Position numbers and translations under genes: made by a program. This document shows, in pieces, positions 1 through 55,825 of a stretch of DNA of 64,000 nt. The first letter of the stretch is position 1; each line of letters begins with the position of its first letter. Location: the NCBI RefSeq assembly GCF_038025025.1, contig NW_027117344.1, forward strand, positions 558,001 to 622,000. Direction: 5' to 3'. The notes below the pieces were generated by a model. It searched no databases. It was given only the letters and a program-made list of their open reading frames with translations, and was not told the origin of the DNA. The DNA is from Phyllosticta citribraziliensis. Lineage: Eukaryota.

Positions 1-289
1 TCGGAAGATTGCAATCTTAGTAGAGACTCCATGTGCTTGTTTCAGTCGTCAAGTTGCAAGCGGTGACGTACTTCGAAGCAGTAGGTAGTTGGCGGCCAAG
101 CGCCCATCCTACCACGAGAGACAATGGGCTCATGTCGAAAACAGGATCAGTGTCCCAAAATTGCAATCCACTGACAGACAATCGCATCTTTTCCAAATTA
201 TTCGTGCGCGTAGTAACTACGAGTTTAAGTCATTGAGGTTAGGCGCTGGATAGGGATGGATATGTACCACTCGGACCGAACACTTTACA

Positions 290-488
290 TCGCCCCCCTC
301 CGCGCACCGGCTCGCTGGTGCAATGGGAGGGGGGCAAATTGACGGGGTCAGCGGCCAGTAGTGCGAGGGTGCCGCCAGTTCGAGTCTGGTCCGCGCCGCT
401 GACTTTCCGATCGTGTACTATAAAACCTACCCGCGGGGAAAGGTTTGATATATCCCACGGACCGCCGTGGGTGAAGTTTTGCTCTTTT
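290..488 (+). ncRNA. Putative RNA polymerase III-transcribed structured ncRNA of unknown family (four hairpins)
   Basis: A-box TGGTGCAATGG at 316-326. B-box inside a T-arm-like hairpin GCCAG-TTCGAGT-CTGGT at 374-390. Stems at 292-301/326-335, 347-355/395-403, 423-428/441-446 and 454-460/465-471. T-runs at 477-480 and 485-488. The ends are approximate. Confidence 0.65.
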
Positions 489-939
489 GTACTTTGCTGG
501 CTCTAACCTATGTTTTCCTCGTTCGGCGACTTTTCTATGACTATCTTTCTTAGAGCAGCCGCAATCAACCCAATTCACGGTGTTGACTTGAGAGGACAAA
601 CCTGAACAGCTGATGGCAATGCATTACCCTCATCTGCAATCAACGCACCAGATCATGAACAAGTCGGTCCGAGGCTTGGTAGCAAAGGTCACGGCATACA
701 TATTCCCGATGTTCTGCGAGTTGCGGCTCGAATCTCGAATGCTCCCTAGCACTCTTCTTGTAGATGCTTCGATGCTCCTGGGTACATACTTTAGTCTAAG
801 GTGGCTTCCATGCTCCCTTTAAGTTGCCTGTTGAAGCGTATGAATACTTCCAGTCTACAATAGTGTGTACCATAGCTTTAGCAAACAAGTCATGGTCCTG
901 GAAGCAGTCCAAGTCAAAAGCACAATCTTCCAACAAGTC

Positions 940-3534
940 CTACCAATGCCTAACAACATACAAGACATTCCTCTCCCTCAACGCATTCAACACACCCCAA
1001 ACCCTCTTCCTCTTCACGCCCTCACGCCCCGCAATATCATCAAGTGCGTGCGCACCGTCGAAGTATTTTTGCAAGACGGGAAAAAGCTGGCGCACCTCGT
1101 CGTCGACCAAGCCGCGGCGGATGTGGTCGATCCAACGCGCCTCGAGCGAGTTTGCCTTCTGCGGGCTGTAAATCATGCGCGGTGTGTAGTCAGCCGGATC
1201 GTTGGATGCGTGCGAGTGCTGGTGGTGCGCGTGATGCGGGTGCGGCTGGAAGCCGGGCCGCAGCACCCCATTGCGCTGCGGTGTTGAGGGCGTGCCGTGC
1301 GGGTGGGAGAAGTCGGAGAGGGCTGTGAGCGAGGCGACGGAGTGCGATGCTTGGAGTGGTGAGTGGCGAAGGGCGGTTGGGGAGGTGTTGGTGGTGAGTG
1401 TCCCTCCCATGCCCGTCGTTTTTGTGCTGCGGTTGCTCTCGGAGTCGCTGTTGCGCGGCGACCGTCGATGCTGCGGCGTCGAGGGCGCGTCTTCACTGGC
1501 TATGGTTGCCCGGTCTGACGCGTCGTCTTGGTGGTCGAGTGCGGCGTGTCGTTCACGCGCGGCTGCCACGGCGGCTCTGGCTGCATCCTTGGCTTCGCGT
1601 TCCATGATTGCGGCGACGTCTGCTTGCACTTCTGCTGACACGCGGATCCAGGCAAAAGTACGGAGCTGTGTTACCCAGCCACCGCGCATGAGCCAGGCTA
1701 ATATGTCCATGTATGCGGAGCGGTGGTCTTTACTGGGAATGAGGGATCCATAGGTCCGTGGGGATTGATTCGAAAGGAGGCTGAGCATCTTTGGTAAAGA
1801 CGGAAGTGTTGGGAACCGGGAGGCATAGGTAGGAATGGCCTGAGGGAGCTTGCGCATGTCAGCGTTGGGAGAGACGATATAAGTGTCTCGCTGATGCAGT
1901 GGAGGTATTGCTCGAGCCCGTCTCCAGTATATCAAGTGCGCAGCGATGAACTCGAGATCTGCCAGTGGTATCTTATGTGCCAGAGCAGTCTTGTGGAGCG
2001 ACTTGGTCGGGTTGAGGCTGCTTATGTAGTAAGCGATTTGCGCCGAGTAGTCTTTTGCGGCACTTTCAATCTCTTTGAGGATTGTCTCCTTGTCCTCGAG
2101 GAAAAGCAAGGCAGAATGAGGAGTTAGCGGAAGCTGGGGCCCCGAATCTATTCGATCTCCATCTGGAAGATTGGCGGTTGTCAACCACAGGCCTGGCATC
2201 TGAGGATCCGTTGGCCTTGGTAAATAGTGAAGCGAGGGAGGCTGAGGGATCTGATACGATGCGTCGGCGAGCATCTCGAAATGGATGTGGGCAATTTTGG
2301 AATTCGAAATACTGTCAAAGAGAATTGCAATCGACTTTGCCAGAGGGGACACATGGATGATGCTGCTCCACAAATTCGGAATCGACTCTCCTAGCAAGCC
2401 ATCAACAACGATCTTCAAGTGCTGTTGGGGAAACTCACGGTTTTCTTTTGCCTTGTTCTTTATTTCCAAAATGACCTTTGATTGCCGGGACACGTAGCCT
2501 GTTTTGGCCTGCTCGTATTTCAGGTCTCTTGAAAATTTTCGAATGACATTGTCATACATTTCCTCGGTTCGTAGTTGATACTCCAGGGCTGGCGGGTTCA
2601 AAACGAAAACGACATTGAACATGGTCATCTCTTCTTCCCCGCCGGCCGTGGAAGCGCTTTTGGCATCTGAAGCTGCGTCGGACATGGCACCGTCCGATGC
2701 CTCATCAGAGAGCTCGTGTCCATATCCAGGTTCGAAGCCAGCGGGCATCTCATCCAGCCCACTCCCTCTGTCCCTATCATTCAAGTCCACTCCCTCGTCT
2801 TCATGAACCGGATTTGCCTTTTCATTGCCATCGTTCTGTGCGCCGTTGACCGCGGCTTCTTCGCTGGATTTCCTTTTTTTCATCATTCCTCTCCTCCTCC
2901 AGCCGCCCTTCTCCTTTGCAAACGTGGGGTATCCAATGAAGCTCAAGCCCTCCATTCCAACTTCGAACTTTCGCTTGTTGAATCCCCTTCCAGGACACAA
3001 TAGCTTCTCCAAACCCTCGCTCTTGAAGCCCATCAAGCTGTCCCATTCTGGCGCTCCGTCGGCGGATACGGCAGCACCCTTCCTCCCTGACCCACCATGC
3101 CCGCTTTTGCCATCCTCATCCCCAGTGCCAGTCAAGCCGTCGTCTTCGTCTTCATCTTCCGTCAGGTCCTCCGAGGCTGATCGCATGCTCCGCTGCCCTC
3201 GGCTTCGACCTTCCCTCAAGCCTCCGCGACTCGTGCCTCGGCTATCTGCCCGGCTTCCGGCGCGACTTCCTGGATCTCCATTCTCAGCCGCGCTGCTAGT
3301 ACCACTGCTGTCGGTGTCGCTGCTCCATCCGCTGCTCGAAGAGCTGGTCGATTCGTCGTCTGTGTTGTTGGACGCGGTGGTCCCGTACCATTGCGGGTGC
3401 GTGGGCTGATTGCTCAATGACCCAGCAGGATGCGGCGGGTAGTGGAAGACCAGGCGAGGACCAGAAAGCGACTTGATTACGAGGAGGATGGCGACCAGTG
3501 AGGGGTTCGGCGGGAGGATGTTTGGCGGGGCCAT
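940..3534 (-). CDS. NPR3: Nitrogen permease regulator 3 (SEACIT/GATOR1 subunit)
   Basis: N-terminal LVAILLVIKS..GPRLVFHYP, MFNVVFVLNP, LKYEQAK, HLIYWRRARAIPPL and C-terminal KYFDG...REGVKRKRVW...VVRHW motifs match Npr3/Rmd11. Start placed at MAPPN (3534). One in-frame intron at 2391-2438 (GTGAGT...CTAG). Confidence 0.9.
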   Translation of the reverse strand: MAPPNILPPNPSLVAILLVIKSLSGPRLVFHYPPHPAGSLSNQPTHPQWYGTTASNNTDDESTSSSSSGWSSDTDSSGTSSAAENGDPGSRAGSRADSRGTSRGGLREGRSRGQRSMRSASEDLTEDEDEDDGLTGTGDEDGKSGHGGSGRKGAAVSADGAPEWDSLMGFKSEGLEKLLCPGRGFNKRKFEVGMEGLSFIGYPTFAKEKGGWRRRGMMKKRKSSEEAAVNGAQNDGNEKANPVHEDEGVDLNDRDRGSGLDEMPAGFEPGYGHELSDEASDGAMSDAASDAKSASTAGGEEEMTMFNVVFVLNPPALEYQLRTEEMYDNVIRKFSRDLKYEQAKTGYVSRQSKVILEIKNKAKENREFPQQHLKIVVDGLLGESIPNLWSSIIHVSPLAKSIAILFDSISNSKIAHIHFEMLADASYQIPQPPSLHYLPRPTDPQMPGLWLTTANLPDGDRIDSGPQLPLTPHSALLFLEDKETILKEIESAAKDYSAQIAYYISSLNPTKSLHKTALAHKIPLADLEFIAAHLIYWRRARAIPPLHQRDTYIVSPNADMRKLPQAIPTYASRFPTLPSLPKMLSLLSNQSPRTYGSLIPSKDHRSAYMDILAWLMRGGWVTQLRTFAWIRVSAEVQADVAAIMEREAKDAARAAVAAARERHAALDHQDDASDRATIASEDAPSTPQHRRSPRNSDSESNRSTKTTGMGGTLTTNTSPTALRHSPLQASHSVASLTALSDFSHPHGTPSTPQRNGVLRPGFQPHPHHAHHQHSHASNDPADYTPRMIYSPQKANSLEARWIDHIRRGLVDDEVRQLFPVLQKYFDGAHALDDIAGREGVKRKRVWGVLNALRERNVLYVVRHW

Positions 3535-4046
3535 TATGCGCGTCGTTGTGGAATAGCGCGATTGAAACGAAACTCGAGTTTCTGGGAAATCATTCGAATG
3601 AGCATTTGCGAAGCGCGTCCCAAGAGGGAGTAGGTCGATCACGTTCGACGCATGTCGTGGAGTTTGGGGGCTGGGGCGGTAGCGGTTGGTCAAGTCAAGC
3701 AATGACGCGCGGGGAAAGATGCGCTGATCGGTTACCACGCGAGTCTGGACGCAGTGCAAAAGCGGCTGCTCATCTATGACGCAAAACCCCATCCTGTCCC
3801 TTGTTTCACGTTTCTGGTCTGCGCCTTGATATGAAATTTTCATTCGTTGCTATGTGCAATGTTTGTTTTGCTGCTAGTGAAGCCCTAGCCTCTGGCCAGG
3901 CACAAAGCTTTGCATCCATGTTGCCCAACCTTGACCGCTCTAAACGCTAGAATCCTTGCAAACTTGCCCGCCTCTGAGCATGTCTATTCTTGAAATCTAG
4001 ACAGATCCTGCCGCTGCGCCGTTGTGCTTGGTGATGTTGGAAAGGC

Positions 4047-5959: not shown

Positions 5960-8900
5960 ATGGGTGGACCTCCCATCACCCCCTCGACCCAATCAAAGTC
6001 CAAATTGAAGGCTTTCCAATTCATCGAGGGCCGACCAGAACATGACCCGGAGAAAGAGAATCAAGGCACGCATGTTGGGACCAAGGACTCCATCAATTCG
6101 CCCACAAAGCCCAAGCCGCCGACCTTAGTACAATCCAATACTGATCCCACGACTCCTGCACCCAACCGACCACCACTCGTCGACTTGCTCGATGGCGGAG
6201 ATCTCCCGTCGGCCTCGAAACGCGAGTCGCTCTCGCCAGACGAGCAGATATACTGGCACATACCCGCCAGCTCTCAAATGGATACAACACCAGCGCGGAG
6301 GAAGAGGGCTCGAAGCTCGTCTCCGCCATCCGCTTCCCAAACTAGAGCTAGGAATGCCAAAAAGAGGCGTCAGGGAACTCCAAACATGAAGACGCCCAAA
6401 GCAGACCCTGCAGCAGACTTGTGGAATCGCTATTCGGTCCACACCTCGAACGCAGAATCAACTTCGAATCCGTCCGCTTTTGCCCATTTGATGGCCGAAG
6501 CCTCTCCTCGATCTTCTGCTACTGCGGGGAGCGTCGGCGGTCTTCGACGATGGGCAAGCTGTGGTGCAGAGTGGCCAGCCTCCAAGACAAAGAAGCGACG
6601 CACAGCAGGCACTTTCAGAGAACAGTTAGAGCCAATTGGCGACAAGGAACACGGCGACACGTCGGAACTTCCCCAGGCCAAGGTCTCCAAAGTCGGCGCG
6701 CTTGTCGAGAAGATACAAAAAAGTCTTGCCGAGAAGCCGACTCACTACTCAGATAACGGACCCTCAAGCTCATCGCCGTTGCCGGGCACGGTCGGACTCG
6801 GTGACGACGTCCCTGGATCCCCTTTGCAGCGCCTTGCTCCTATCCAGGAAGGCGCTGAGGCATCAGAATCAGACACCATAGATGCGGAGCCAGAGACGAG
6901 ACGAGAGGACCCAGCTGATCCTTCGAGCTCATCAGAATTCGGAGATGACGACCTCGATGAGGAATTCCTCGAAGCGGCCGCCGAGTCTACGGGTGTGACT
7001 GTTCCTGGTATTGAGGGCGGTTCTGAACATCCACGGAAAGCACCAGTCGCCTCCGAGCCACAGGTTCAACAATCTCATGAGGCAGTCGATGAACGAAGCC
7101 AGGACCAAGCACCCTCAGATAGTGAAGATGAGTTTGGCCTCGGTGACGGCGATGATTTTGGAGAAGATCTCGAAACGGCTGTTTCCCAGTACGATATCAG
7201 ACCCAGCCACCCAGCGCAACCAAAAAAGCCAGATCCAGCTGCGACACTGAATGACAAACATTCGGCTGCTCATGGCAGCAGTAATGTTGTCAATGTCGAC
7301 AACGATTCTGACGATGAATTTGGTGATGATGACATTGATGAAGAGCAATTTGCAGCGGCAGAGGTCGCCGCTACGCAAGGTTATAAGCCGAGTACCTTTT
7401 CTGTACGTACCTGAAGCCTTTGTGCATGCATGTAATTAGCTTACTGAGTAATCGGAGAGTGAGAGTGACAGGATCGCCCGCACTATTCAACGCTACCAAG
7501 TTATCAATGTGGTGGACGGTCAATTTAAGACTGACAAGGGCTACATGATGCCTGAGAAGGCAAGTTGCCCCAAATGCCAAGTATCCCCAATATTCTGACT
7601 CCCGTGCAGGTCTTGCTTGTCGAAGAGGAAAAGAGCAAGAAAATAAAAGCAATCACCCTTCGCCAGTCGTGGTATGACACTCGTTGCACGCCCGGCTCGT
7701 ACGTACATGTCATCGGCCAATTCTCATCGACCGGAGAATGCACCATAGACAACGACAACAACATGCTCATTCTCCATCCGGACCATCTCATTTCTGCAAC
7801 CACCGTCGGCGATTCGTTCAGCTGCATGCGCAAGGCTGTATTGCAAGATCGTGTCAAAGCAACCAGCGACGCCAACGAGGCTGCCATGATCGGTACGATG
7901 CTGCACGAAATATTTCAGGAAGCCTTGAAGTCCAACCGATGGGACCATGAATGGCTGGTCTGGCTGATTAAGAAGATCATTCCGCGCAAGTTCGAGACGA
8001 TCTTGGAGATTGGCCTGACTGTCGACCATGTCATTGATCGGTTGGTAAGTAAACTGCCGCAGCTGCAAGGCTGGGCGAAAATCTTTGTCAAGGCAAAACC
8101 TGGGGTAAGTCGAGGTTCCAATATTGATGAAGTCTTGCTGACCATGCCCCAGCAAGATGCCGTCGTCAAGGATCGGAATGCCAAAAACCTGCAGATGAGC
8201 ATTAACAAGCTTCTGGAGGTCGAGGAACACATCTGGTCGCCCATGTACGGCTTGAAGGGCAACATCGATGCCTCCATCCAAGCTGTGATGCATGACGAGC
8301 ATGGGGAAAAGATCGTGACTGCTCCCTTCGAACTGAAGACCGGTAGAGCTGTCAACATATCTCATCAGGCGCAAACAGCACTCTACACCTTGCTGATGTC
8401 TGATCGATATGGTAAGTTCCCCTTCAACTTTACAGAGTCTCAAGCTGAAGTGGGGTTCCAGACGTCGAAATCGCGTACGGGATTCTTTACTACTTGGACA
8501 GTTCTGAGATCAGTCGCATCCCCGCAATCCGCCACGAAATCCGCCAAATGATCATCCAGCGAAACGAACTCGCCTGCTACGTTCGCGAAAGACTTCAACT
8601 GCCTCCAATGCTCAAAAACTCCCATGCCTGCAACAAATGCTATGCACAAGAGACGTGCTTCATCTATCACAGGCTCGCAGAATATGGAGAGGCCGAGACG
8701 CTTAGCGGACCGGCTAAGCAAAAGTTTCAAGAATTGGTGCGCAACCTGACAGTGCCGCACCAAGACTTTTTCAAGAAATGGGACCTTCTCATGACCCAGG
8801 AGGAATCTGATGTGAAGAAATTCCATCGTGAGCTTTGGACGATGCTCAGCCACGAGAGAGAAAAGCTTGGACGGTGCTTTGCCAATGTCGTCGTCGAACC

Positions 8901-12442: not shown

Positions 12443-13646
12443 TTTGACGGTTTTCCTTAGGGAGAAGAAGGGTACGTAGAGATGTTAATTTGAAGAACTC
12501 GATCACCAGGACGAGGAAGAGAGAGAGAAAGGCAGTATTAAAAGGTTGCTATTCTTTCTTGGCTGCAAGAAGAGAAGAGTGGAATTTTGGGGGTACCTGA
12601 AGTAAATGTTTATATACGTCTGTGGCACATGGCATCCTTACCGTCGACCTGAGCAGGGGAAGGAGCTCGTGGCTCTGGAGTGGTTGTGTTACCAGATGCA
12701 GCAAAATGCTCCACGTACGCCGGGCGGCTTTGAAACGAGATCCACCTATGGAAGAGCCAGGATGCATGACAAGCACCTACCTTTATGGACCAAAGGCGTA
12801 GACAGGCGCTCAGCTAGCCGACGGCTTGCAGCACAAATGTGGCCGGCTCCTCTCTCCCTGCTCTTCTTCCATTGCTGGACGCCAGGCTCATATGTCCGGC
12901 AATATAGGCCCGTGAGAAGAGAGCATAGGCGAGCGACGCGCAAAAGTGGTGAGCAGTAGCGGAGGCCTTCCGCAGGCCCGACCACCTTACTTTTCGGGCA
13001 ACCTCCTCCTCAATTCGGACGGCGCTAGCAGGACGAGACTGCGAGATGGGATAAAATAAGGAACTTTGGAGACGGTCGCCAAGACGTGATTCGTCAACAC
13101 CCACCCAAGCGACATCTGCGCTCGGTACTCTTTTCAAAGGGCTTGAAGCTGAAACGGAGACGGAGTATTTTGGTGCGTGATCGTCGACCTCGAGGACACG
13201 CCACTTTTAGGCTGATAAAACGGGCAAAGAGATGGCCGGATTGATAGCATGTTGGAAATGGAAGCTGGAATACCTCGGAGCTGCAAACCTGTGCCCGACG
13301 TGCAGATGTGAAGGAGTGGGATGAAGACGAAGACCCAGGAGACGCAAAGCCAGGGGACTGGAATGGAGTGCCTGACCTCCATTGTAGATGGATCACCCGA
13401 TATCCGAGCATCTGGTACGACATGGAATCGAGGTACCGAGTACAAAACAGTTGAGCCTCGAGGTTGACGATCTCACCCACGCGCTTGCCAACAGCGCAGA
13501 GGAAGGAACGGAAGCAAGCCCAGGCCTGGTGGTGACCAAAACAGGACGGCGCCCGAGACAAGCCGACAAGCAGCCGCAAGCGAGATCTCGGCGGCTACTA
13601 AGCGAGGATGGAAGGAAAAGAATGGTGAGGAAGACGACAAAAGAGC

Positions 13647-13918
13647 AAAAAGAATACCTGGTTGATTCATCAGTCGATGACGCCTGTCCCAAACCCCCGA
13701 GCAAGTTATCCAGCACCGCCATCCAATGGTGAAGCCTAGTCTGCGGAATTGCTTCCCTCGACTGGTAGACTTCATTGCTTAAGCCCGCCTTCGTCACGAG
13801 TTACCTGCGCGAGTCGGTCGGGCACCACCGGATTCGAACTGGGCCTGCTCGAGAGCATTTGATAGGGAAAGATGCCACTGTTTCAATGCACCTTTCAGGA
13901 CTTGTGACCATTACAGCC
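13647..13918 (-). ncRNA. SCR1: Signal recognition particle RNA (fungal type)
   Basis: 5' GGCTGTAATGG fungal Alu-domain motif. 12-bp helix-5 segment CTCTCGAGCAGG/CTTGCTCGGGGG. Internal B-box GTTCGAATCC. GUAA tetraloop (helix 6). Helix 8 GTCGAGG-GAA-GCAA-TTC-CGCAGAC. TATATAAA ~25-30 nt upstream and a T5 terminator. About 270 nt. Confidence 0.9.
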
Positions 13919-14489
13919 AAGAATTTGAAAATTATTGCAATTTATATACTGCATATTTCTTTAGCACCCCACCCATGCAGCGCTTTGCTCGACACGTGGT
14001 GATCCCTTCAGGTTCCATCTCTACACGTGATACTCCATGTACCTGTCCAACTAATCCAAGGTACTTGGACACGACGCCATCAATCTCTTACCACTCAGTA
14101 AAAAGCCCTGCCTCGCAATCGCAAGAGCTACTTCATGTGCCTACTACAGGTCCTCGAAACTATAGTACAGTTCGTGTATCGCGAAAATCAACCAAATCCA
14201 TGCGCCATCCACAACCCATGCACAGGCCGCCTCTCCCACCATCAACCGCTTAGGGAAAGCGAGCCTGATAATACGCCGCTGCCAGTTGCAATCACCACAA
14301 TCGCGTCTCTGCATGCCGCCAAAGACCGTCGCCAGCGTCTTCCAAACCATCTGGTCGCTACCGATTGCCACTTGAAAATAATGCGCGGGGGGTCGTCTCT
14401 TTCTACCCTGTAACCTAAAAGTCGATAAAGTCCGGATATCAAGCAGAGGAAAGACGTTTCTCGTATGCACAGCTGGATTTCGTCCAATT

Positions 14490-40503: not shown

Positions 40504-40622
40504 ACGTACGACCATAGCACGCAGAGAATTCGGAACCCCGTCCGCTCTTCCATAGACAAGCTGCGTTGCGGGCGATTAGTAGTTGCGTGGGTGACCAGCA
40601 GCGAATCCCGTCTGTTGTACGT
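40504..40622 (+). rRNA. Dispersed 5S rRNA gene
   Basis: 119 nt: ACGTACGACCATA...CCCGTCCGCTCT...TAGTAGTTG...GGTGAC...GCGAATC...TGTTGTACGT. Helix I ACGTACGAC pairs with GTTGTACGT. T-run terminator follows. AT-rich element ~30 nt upstream. Confidence 0.95.
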
Positions 40623-41271
40623 TTTGACCTTTTTTCTTTTCTTCGTCTTTTTTTTTGTGGGGCTGGTAGTTAGGCGCGCGGTTGGTATGTGCCCACAGTC
40701 GTAGAACCGAGAAACGGTCTCTTTGTATGCCCGACACTGAGCTCATGGACGACCAACGGGACGTGATAATCGAGGGATTTATTTTCAGTTTGCTGGGTTG
40801 GAGTCGAGTACATCGGCACTGCTTCTGCGTGGCTGTCGTATGGTGGATGATGCTACCTGTAGCTATGTACCTCAACGTGGTGATAATATCTTGCTATGCA
40901 GTCGTTCGTCTTCTCAGGAACCGAAAGGGTCGATAAATAGACGCATGGTTGGTTGTACATGAGGAAGAAGAAGAAAAAATAGCAATAGCGATGGAAGTGG
41001 CGGTGGTCAACACAACAATTTGCCCACCACCATGGTAGTCGTTGTCTTCCTTGGAAGTGCCACACGCTTTGGAATAATCTCGATAATGCTGTCCGACATG
41101 CACATCTTGTTCCCACATCCTGTACACTGTTTATCTGCCCTGATGCTGCTGCCGCCGTCTTTTGCACAGTAGTACTGTTGTATGTGTCGCTTCGCTTTTC
41201 GTGCCACTTTCTCGCGCCATCAGTCGCCTGGGTATTCACCTTTCATAATATATCCTGTGTCGAGTCTCTGT

Positions 41272-55523: not shown

Positions 55524-55825
55524 ACCGATCAGACGTCCACCAGCGCCCACTCAAGCCAGGCTGACGCGAAGTCAAAGAACCAGCCGAGTCGAGATCATTT
55601 CCACCGCAGCCGAAGCCAAGCGGTAAGTACCATCACTCTCGGGCGCCGGGGATAGCAGTCATCAGCTCGGTTGGAGATTCTGTGGCTCTTGTAAGGAGCT
55701 CAGAAGAAGGCGTTTACTATAGAAATGATTCCATCTGCGAGGCGTTGTTAGCATTGCTGTTGTTTCGGTCGTTCGCATCCTTCGTAAAGGGTAGGGGGGA
55801 GGGACGTACGAAGTAAAATCGCTAA
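55524..55825 (-). ncRNA. U3: U3 snoRNA with a spliceosomal intron (55735-55809)
   Basis: Box A' TACTTC, then intron GTACGT...GCTAAC...CAG. Box A ATCATTTCTATAG (55717-55729). Hinge AGAGCCACAGAATC (55676-55689). Box C' TGATGA (55659-55664), box B GAGAGTGA (55633-55640), box C-like GAAATGA (55595-55601), box D CTGA (55529-55532). Terminal stem ACCGA/TCGGT. TATAAA at 55855-55860. Confidence 0.92.

Follow-up and report, generated by a model that had tools for sequence, protein, structure and literature searches.

A putative tRNA-derived Pol III-type element beside NPR3 in a Phyllosticta-like fungus and the recurrence of its parts in close relatives

Results

A hairpin-rich element between converging transcripts

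The element described here occupies positions 290-488 on the plus strand of the window, by which we mean the whole 64,000-nt stretch of DNA that was analysed, and it lies between NPR3, on the minus strand with its end at 940, and a spliced plus-strand unit that converges on it (Table 1). The DNA belongs to a Phyllosticta-like Dothideomycete: the closest named NPR3 proteins are those of Phyllosticta (93% and 77%), followed by those of other Botryosphaeriales. The best start of the NPR3-like open reading frame (940-3843, minus) is probably the Met at residue 104 (~3534); in alignment A1 the homologues start from the LPPNPSL motif, and the first 103 residues of the long frame are likely upstream sequence. 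On the other side of the element, a contig of public run X1 joins position 80 to 145, and the skipped segment (81-144, 64 nt, plus strand) has GT..AG ends (GTAGGT...ACAG), which points to a spliced plus-strand transcript that enters the window from the left and runs toward the element. An open frame on the same strand, upstream of the element, stops at 231-233 and encodes a peptide of weakly coding appearance, and the transcript could either belong to the end of a gene or be a non-coding host RNA. The GC content reaches 68-72% at 301-400, forming an island in surroundings of 40-54%.

Elsewhere in the window Rfam models at gathering score identify an SRP RNA gene (13653-13919, minus, 133.6 bits), a U3 snoRNA gene (55524-55746, minus) and a 5S rRNA gene only, and give nothing at the element. 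The SRP RNA gene has TATATAAA about 28 nt upstream and an internal B-box-like AGTTCGAATCC at 13830-13840 (region 13637-13946, minus). The 5S rRNA gene, a dispersed one at 40504-40623 (plus), terminates in T4-GACC-T6 and has an A/T patch ahead of it. ARAGORN finds no tRNA gene in the whole 64-kb window, and a scan for bacterial-type promoters and terminators, which is not relevant to a fungus, returned no sites.

An earlier sequence-only reading had described 290-488 as an unassigned structured RNA with four hairpins and a tRNA-like internal promoter, and direct reading of the sequence confirms all of its letters and coordinates. The 199 nt of the plus strand fold to -89.4 kcal/mol (z -2.6), an energy reached by 1 of 200 shuffles, and the minimum free energy (MFE) fold recovers HP1, HP2, HP3 and HP4. 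The minus strand also folds well, at -86.4 kcal/mol (z -3.5). About five G-U pairs (309-316, 346-404, 362-371, 363-370 and 374-390) are present on the plus strand only and favour that strand, as had been proposed. The hairpins differ in how far their energies depart from those of shuffled sequence. HP1 is exactly as it had been drawn and its stability is beyond chance (z -4.70; 0 of 200 shuffles as good), and HP4, likewise described accurately down to its perfect 7 bp and ACCG loop, also beats chance (z -2.90; 2 of 200). The pairing assigned to HP2 is correct and the T-arm within it is exceptional as a motif, but its energy is not (z -0.96; 31 of 200 shuffles as good); for HP3 only the letters stand, since the energy of the region is at chance level (z -0.26; 75 of 200). 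Above chance are thus HP1 and HP4, by energy, and the T-arm/B-box hairpin, by motif.

Table 1. Features of the element and of the recurring or conserved segments around it (window coordinates)
Feature	Position	Strand	Description
HP1	292-335	+	lower stem perfect 10 bp, 292-301 GCCCCCCTCC / 326-335 GGAGGGGGGC
HP1 upper stem	304-310/315-321	+	7 bp including G309-U316, loop CTCG
HP2, tRNA-like module	343-409	+	closing helix encloses small hairpin and T-arm
HP2 closing helix	347-355 GTCAGCGGC / 395-403 GCCGCTGAC	+	perfect 9 bp; extension 343-346/404-409
Variable-arm-like hairpin	361-372	+	one base ahead of T-arm (MFE fold)
T-arm	374-390	+	GCCAG-TTCGAGT-CTGGT, 5 bp, loop of TTCGANT type; B-box core GTTCGAGTC at 378-386
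HP3	423-428/441-446	+	AAACCT/AGGTTT; weak, competes with 403-408/437-442
HP4	454-460/465-471	+	perfect 7 bp, loop ACCG
A/T-containing patch	258-267	+	GGATATGTAC; about 30 nt upstream of HP1
A-box-like word	316-326	+	TGGTGCAATGG; 2 mismatches to consensus TRGCNNAGTGG
Putative Pol III terminator	477-490	+	TTTTGCTCTTTTGT; TTTT at 477-480 and 485-488
38-nt core	362-399	+	recurs in other contigs of X1, X2 and X3; in some twice
Linker	415-427	+	GTACTATAAAACC; GTACTATA also after core in other copies
Block	255-507	+	nearly unchanged in organism C, as inferred; limits set by deletion at 254 and replaced 508-580

Comparison with known RNA families argues that the element belongs to none of them. At E<=10 the Rfam library gives no match on 150-700, and on 1-300 only a meaningless one to mir-2217 (E 9.8). 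The library performs on DNA of this kind, as it found Afu_455, Afu_294 and snR51 in other fungal loci. For RNase P/MRP, U6, 7SK, SRP, snoRNAs and the Afu_ families there is no covariance-model match, and the claim of no known family is borne out. That it is not a tRNA is likewise upheld: a canonical tRNA gene is rejected by ARAGORN, which reports 0 genes in the window with or without introns, and by Rfam. Only at a 50% threshold does ARAGORN draw a forced 83-nt cloverleaf over 317-399, in which the variable arm is long and 5 of 7 acceptor pairs form, and this span folds worse than its shuffles (z +1.6). A permuted tRNA gene is rejected because the A-box precedes the B-box and, by eye, no 5' acceptor strand follows the core. 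A C/D or H/ACA snoRNA in 404-476 is rejected too, the boxes being absent by eye and Rfam giving no match there. The suggestion of a La/LARP7-family partner would draw solely on the 3' hairpin and U tail, features generic for Pol III products, and 7SK in particular has no Rfam match on 150-700 (E<=10).

A T-arm and its Pol III-like surroundings

The most distinctive part of the element is the T-arm with its B-box core, whose presence at 374-390 agrees with the sequence-only reading. The 5-bp hairpin around GTTCGANTC was searched for in the window (64,000 nt) and in 80 fungal loci (563,528 nt), and in these 627,528 nt, on both strands, it has a single site, which is the T-arm of the element. The 11-nt consensus of the B-box is GGTTCGANTCC; the element departs from it by 2 mismatches and hence falls outside a list of sites with at most 1 mismatch. 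In the MFE fold the small hairpin ahead of the T-arm may sit where a class II (Ser/Leu-type) tRNA would carry its long variable arm. The T-arm is followed by CCGCGCC-G, where such a tRNA would have its 3' acceptor strand and discriminator, the order there being variable arm, T-arm, 3' acceptor strand and discriminator. The element contains no matching 5' acceptor strand; a 9-bp helix closes the module instead, set off from the T stem by four bases. HP2 resembles the 3' portion of what was once a long-variable-arm tRNA, with a new 9-bp helix to close it. The proposed tRNA-derived origin is in this way supported by three adjoining parts, namely the T-arm with its B-box core, the variable-arm-like hairpin before it and the acceptor-like strand after it.

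The upstream promoter signals are weaker. With TRGCNNAGTGG as the A-box consensus, the window holds 313 matches with 2 mismatches where 318 are expected, so the A-box carries no weight alone; the letters and position reported for it are correct, and it occurs at chance level. The A-box and the B-box start 61 nt apart, a spacing within the range of long-arm or intron-bearing tRNA genes. The A-box lies 24 nt past the start of HP1, further from the predicted transcription start than in tRNA genes, and a TFIIIC-placed start could therefore fall inside HP1. The A/T-containing patch upstream of HP1 is a possible weak TATA-like element, by analogy with TATATAAA ahead of the SRP RNA gene and with the A/T patch ahead of the 5S gene.

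At the 3' end, the TTTT that had been noted after HP4 is present and is repeated a few letters on, while no run of T5 or longer occurs within 280-700. T4-GCTC-T4 at 477-488 is likely to be a Pol III terminator, judged from its letters and from their recurrence at the SRP RNA gene. The SRP RNA gene of the window terminates in T5-GCTC-T4, and a 14-mer within this context (13650-13637, minus), starting 2 nt past the 3' end of the Rfam match to SRP RNA, is identical to TTTTGCTCTTTTGT. The common terminator context is a point for Pol III and for the plus strand, and with it the Pol III-like layout of the element gains support. The two loci have in common an upstream A/T element, a B-box-like hairpin and this identical 14-nt T-run context; beyond the terminator they have no similarity. 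When the T runs are left out, the comparison of element and SRP RNA gives z 0.39; 101 of 300 shuffles score as well, as do 29 of 200 random pieces of the window. With flanks and T runs included, 7 of 300 shuffles reach the global score and the best local alignment is the 14-mer by itself. An SRP-derived element is accordingly rejected, the likeness being limited to the 14-nt terminator.

Parts of the element in related fungi

Contigs of three public runs (X1, X2 and X3) were compared with window positions 1-1500, of which X1 covers the stretch completely. No run matching the stretch was recorded as RNA, and contig depth in X1 and X2 is not read as expression. The sequence-only reading had taken the element for a single RNA; this part of it does not hold, as further contigs, both from the same organism and from related ones, contain the core and the 3' end. 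In X1 a contig with a depth of 1205, where the locus contig has 524, matches 362-399 and returns to 362, and also joins 399 to 469-489. Joints from 399 back to 362, which double the core, are found in both X1 and X3. Positions 450-490 recur with 5 differences in a 4570-nt X1 contig and a 1161-nt X3 contig. Short contigs of X2, from organism B, cover 347-393, 364-409 and 364-408 with 1-2 differences, so that 1-2 of 45-47 core letters differ in this organism, against 67 of 560 in its NPR3 coding sequence. One X2 contig carries two cores 21 letters apart with GTACTATAG in the spacer, and another runs on with letters resembling 409-438. A loose end at 394 in X3 also contains GTACTATAG, and a loose end at 408 in X2 contains GTACAATAAAACCTACCC.

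The recurrence of the core, of the GTACTATA linker and of the 3' hairpin with its terminator indicates a small family, found in at least three related organisms, of which these are the modules. In X1 the core is about 2.3 times as deep as the locus contig, an excess that suggests few copies rather than hundreds. Within the 64-kb window BLASTN and a model built from HP2 (R1) reveal no second copy; the model scores 106 bits on HP2 itself and 17.9 bits on the next best site of the window. By eye, another copy can form a different perfect 9-bp closing helix, in which GGGCGGGCG (X1) would pair with 392-394 plus CCGCCC (X3), and from the loose ends a second helix could form below it. This comparison, which joins fragments from two different runs, suggests that the closing helix is kept while its letters change.

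The locus itself can be followed into two further organisms represented in X3. For organism C, one contig follows 1-507 collinearly with 28 mismatches, has lost 4 nt at 254 and carries other sequence in place of 508-580. X3 contains 18 of 38 sampled 31-mers of 230-600. In simulations with mismatches spread evenly, at least 18 are recovered with a probability of about 0.001, and the best fit places 1-5 mismatches in 255-507. Judged from these 38 sampled words, 255-507 seems to be kept about ten times better than the left flank in organism C. The block takes in some 35 nt ahead of HP1 and some 20 nt past the T runs. A contig of the second organism matches 1-258, with 38 mismatches, and 464-499 but leaves 259-463 unaligned, so that HP1-HP3 are not kept in every relative; conservation of the block appears to hold for organism C. 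The contig of the latter spans about 604 letters where the window has 672, and for this reason need not represent an empty site.

In more distant fungi nothing comparable was found beside NPR3. An alignment of NPR3 yielded 80 fungal NPR3 loci from metagenomes (563,528 nt), whose best aligned protein segments show 59% identity or less. The 80 loci contain no similar DNA and no T-arm hairpin of this kind, and the HP2 model reaches 13.5 bits (E 4) at best among them. A search for tRNA genes beside NPR3 gave 0 at default settings and, when introns were allowed, 1 doubtful candidate with a 386-nt intron. The exact 24-mer 371-394 has 0 matches in the metagenome collection. A counterpart 3' of NPR3, which the sequence-only reading had proposed to look for in related genomes, is missing from these loci. 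They come from distant fungi and so show only the absence of deep conserved synteny. At most, the family is lineage-restricted.

Discussion

The reading that we tentatively favour, with a confidence slightly short of even, is that 290-488 on the plus strand is a member of a small family of putative tRNA-derived Pol III-type RNA genes that is restricted to a Phyllosticta-like fungus together with its close relatives. The B-box in the T-arm (374-390) would serve as the TFIIIC site, aided by the weak A-box (316-326), and TFIIIB would sit over the A/T patch near 258-267. Pol III would then initiate near 290-305 and stop at T4-GCTC-T4 (477-488), releasing a predicted RNA of about 175-195 nt that ends in a hairpin and a U tail. 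The long new helix would close the module such that a tRNA-like elbow is displayed by an RNA that is no tRNA. The likeliest role of such an RNA would be that of a tRNA mimic engaging tRNA-binding or tRNA-processing factors.

Several lines of evidence favour the Pol III-gene interpretation. The T-arm/B-box hairpin is unique in 627,528 nt, a variable-arm-like hairpin precedes it, and ARAGORN under relaxed settings draws the same layout. The SRP RNA gene of the window has the identical terminator 14-mer, and the 5S gene also has T4 before a longer T run. The G-U pairs of the plus strand and the GC island at 301-400 point in the same direction, as do the recurrence of the family in three runs, the constraint on 255-507 in organism C and the alternative closing helix in another copy. 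The interpretation is weakened by an A-box at chance level and by the ordinary energies of HP2 and HP3. The T runs are only T4, while the yeasts that have been studied require longer runs for Pol III termination. It is weakened as well by the failure of 259-463 to align in the second X3 organism and by the absence of anything similar near NPR3 in the 80 loci. Measured against the original proposal of a tRNA-derived Pol III non-coding RNA of about 190 nt, the tRNA origin and the Pol III-like layout are retained; the element is not single, and its A-box and HP3 are at chance. A bolder proposal, which we regard as speculative and improbable, is that the family represents an undescribed class of fungal Pol III RNAs. 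These would be tRNA mimics, single or in tandem, in which an elbow of variable arm and T-arm is held by a compensatorily evolving helix, and which in one lineage of plant-associated Dothideomycetes would either form their own RNP or titrate tRNA-handling factors.

The alternative that deserves most attention, unlikely though we hold it to be, is that the element is a low-copy tRNA-related SINE-like retroposon, made by Pol III and reinserted, with no function at this locus. Its parts do recur elsewhere in the same and in related organisms, and low-copy tRNA-related SINEs are described in Aspergillus fumigatus (PMC5063351). The parts seen in other contigs are 362-399, 450-490 and 469-489 only, at low multiples of depth, and a core depth of about 2.3 times the locus contig makes for an apparently low copy number. 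An imperfect direct repeat (13/17, at 262-278 and 448-464) brackets HP1-HP3, and its limits nearly match the 259-463 gap in the X3 contig; by eye, ACTTTAC (282-288) and ACTTTGC (491-497) also flank the predicted transcript. By our estimate about one 13/17 repeat is expected by chance in 421 nt, the 6/7 repeat is weak too, and the contig that skips 259-463 (about 604 versus 672 letters) need not be an empty site. The element ends in a hairpin and T4-GCTC-T4, with no A-rich, simple-repeat or LINE-like tail, and its orthologous copy seems better kept than the flanks, which would be unexpected for a neutral insertion. We consider it more improbable still that the locus is a decayed tRNA gene or a TFIIIC site of the 'extra TFIIIC' or B-box-cluster kind, acting on DNA, for example as a boundary between converging genes, and giving little or no stable RNA. 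The B-box/T-arm as the best-kept and most significant part, the weak A-box and the location between a plus-strand spliced transcript and minus-strand NPR3 would all suit such a site. Fission yeast has B-box clusters, which the tandem core of the other copies recalls. Such a site would leave unexplained the perfect HP1 and HP4, the kept-looking closing helix and the Pol III-style terminator, and a tRNA ancestor at this position would be at odds with the near absence of tRNA genes beside NPR3 in the 80 fungal loci (0 by default, 1 doubtful).

The element could, with a probability that we put lower again, be the 3' end of the upstream plus-strand Pol II transcript, on which RNase P and RNase Z would act as in MALAT1/mascRNA, cutting the module and leaving an upstream RNA that ends in HP1. 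A spliced transcript (X1, 80 to 145) does run toward the element, the upstream frame is weakly coding and stops at 231-233, and HP1 (z -4.7) lies 11 nt ahead of the tRNA-like helix. The four bases between the T stem and the helix leave no contiguous acceptor/T-arm stack, which makes recognition by RNase P or RNase Z uncertain, and independent Pol III units would better account for the shared T-run terminator and for the recurrence of parts elsewhere. Cleavage of this type is, moreover, a mechanism that we know of from animals only. If GC-rich hairpins and promoter-like words had merely come together by chance in an intergenic spacer, this would account for an A-box, an HP2 energy and an HP3 at chance level and for a minus strand that folds about equally well. 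Such an origin is nonetheless very unlikely, as HP1 beats 200 of 200 shuffles and HP4 198 of 200, the T-arm has no second site in 627 kb, other contigs and organisms contain parts of the element, and the block seems conserved in organism C.

Among described systems, the nearest in kind is the low-copy tRNA-related SINE of Aspergillus fumigatus, with lengths of 140-493 bp and target duplications of 4-14 bp (PMC5063351). The size is comparable, at about 190-205 in the element against the 140-493 bp range there for AfuSINE2, and SINEs of the AfuSINE2 type and the element both combine a tRNA-related part with Pol III boxes and a tRNA-unrelated part, low copy number and a gene-rich setting (PMC5063351). 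Compared by description only, the element differs from AfuSINE2 in having no clear target duplication and no repeat or LINE-like tail, its end being a hairpin and T runs. It differs further in containing only the 3' piece of a tRNA with a new closing helix, and in an orthologue seemingly better kept than its flanks. We file the element under the known kind 'tRNA-derived Pol III-type element'.

Other likenesses are architectural. The budding yeast RPR1 and SNR52 genes carry A and B boxes in the transcribed leader of a Pol III unit. As in those genes, tRNA-type boxes in the element precede a part unrelated to tRNA, in a single putative Pol III unit ending in T runs; it differs in that 404-476 matches neither RNase P RNA nor a snoRNA family and shows no C/D or H/ACA boxes by eye. 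Among tRNA-mimic RNAs, mascRNA (from MALAT1) and the bacterial Y RNA-like YrlA have RNase P/Z and Ro60 as partners. In these, as in the element, a T-arm-bearing part of a longer RNA is closed by a long helix formed from both sides. The acceptor/T-arm stack is interrupted in the element, and the likeness is one of architecture in which homology is not expected.

A literature search, conducted short of full texts, found no published description of such an element in Phyllosticta or other Dothideomycetes. We know of very few Pol III products in filamentous fungi beyond tRNA, 5S, U6, SRP and RNase P/MRP RNAs. If the favoured interpretation is right, a young lineage-restricted family made from part of a tRNA and showing signs of constraint would illustrate the origin of new Pol III genes from tRNA debris or SINE-like elements, and it would provide a compact natural Pol III promoter-terminator unit for Dothideomycetes. 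If the element is a decaying repeat instead, it would be an ordinary footnote to genome annotation.

Small RNA genes of another kind lie close to NPR3 in some of the distant fungi. Positions 1-700 of the window contain no snoRNA of the Afu_455, snR51 or Afu_294 type. In one locus (L070, 7378-8345, minus) Afu_455 and Afu_294 lie downstream of NPR3 on the opposite strand, on the same side as the element. Between Afu_294 and NPR3 in that locus nothing resembles the element except the 11-nt word CCCCCTCCGCG of the HP1 5' strand (window 292-305), which is found at 7296-7310 (minus), about 70 nt after Afu_294; its recurrence there is probably due to chance (BLAST E 49). A second locus (L057, 740-1602, plus) has the C/D snoRNAs Afu_455, snR51 and Afu_294, and a third (L041, 147-232, plus) has Afu_294 only; in all three loci the snoRNAs lie within a few kb of NPR3.
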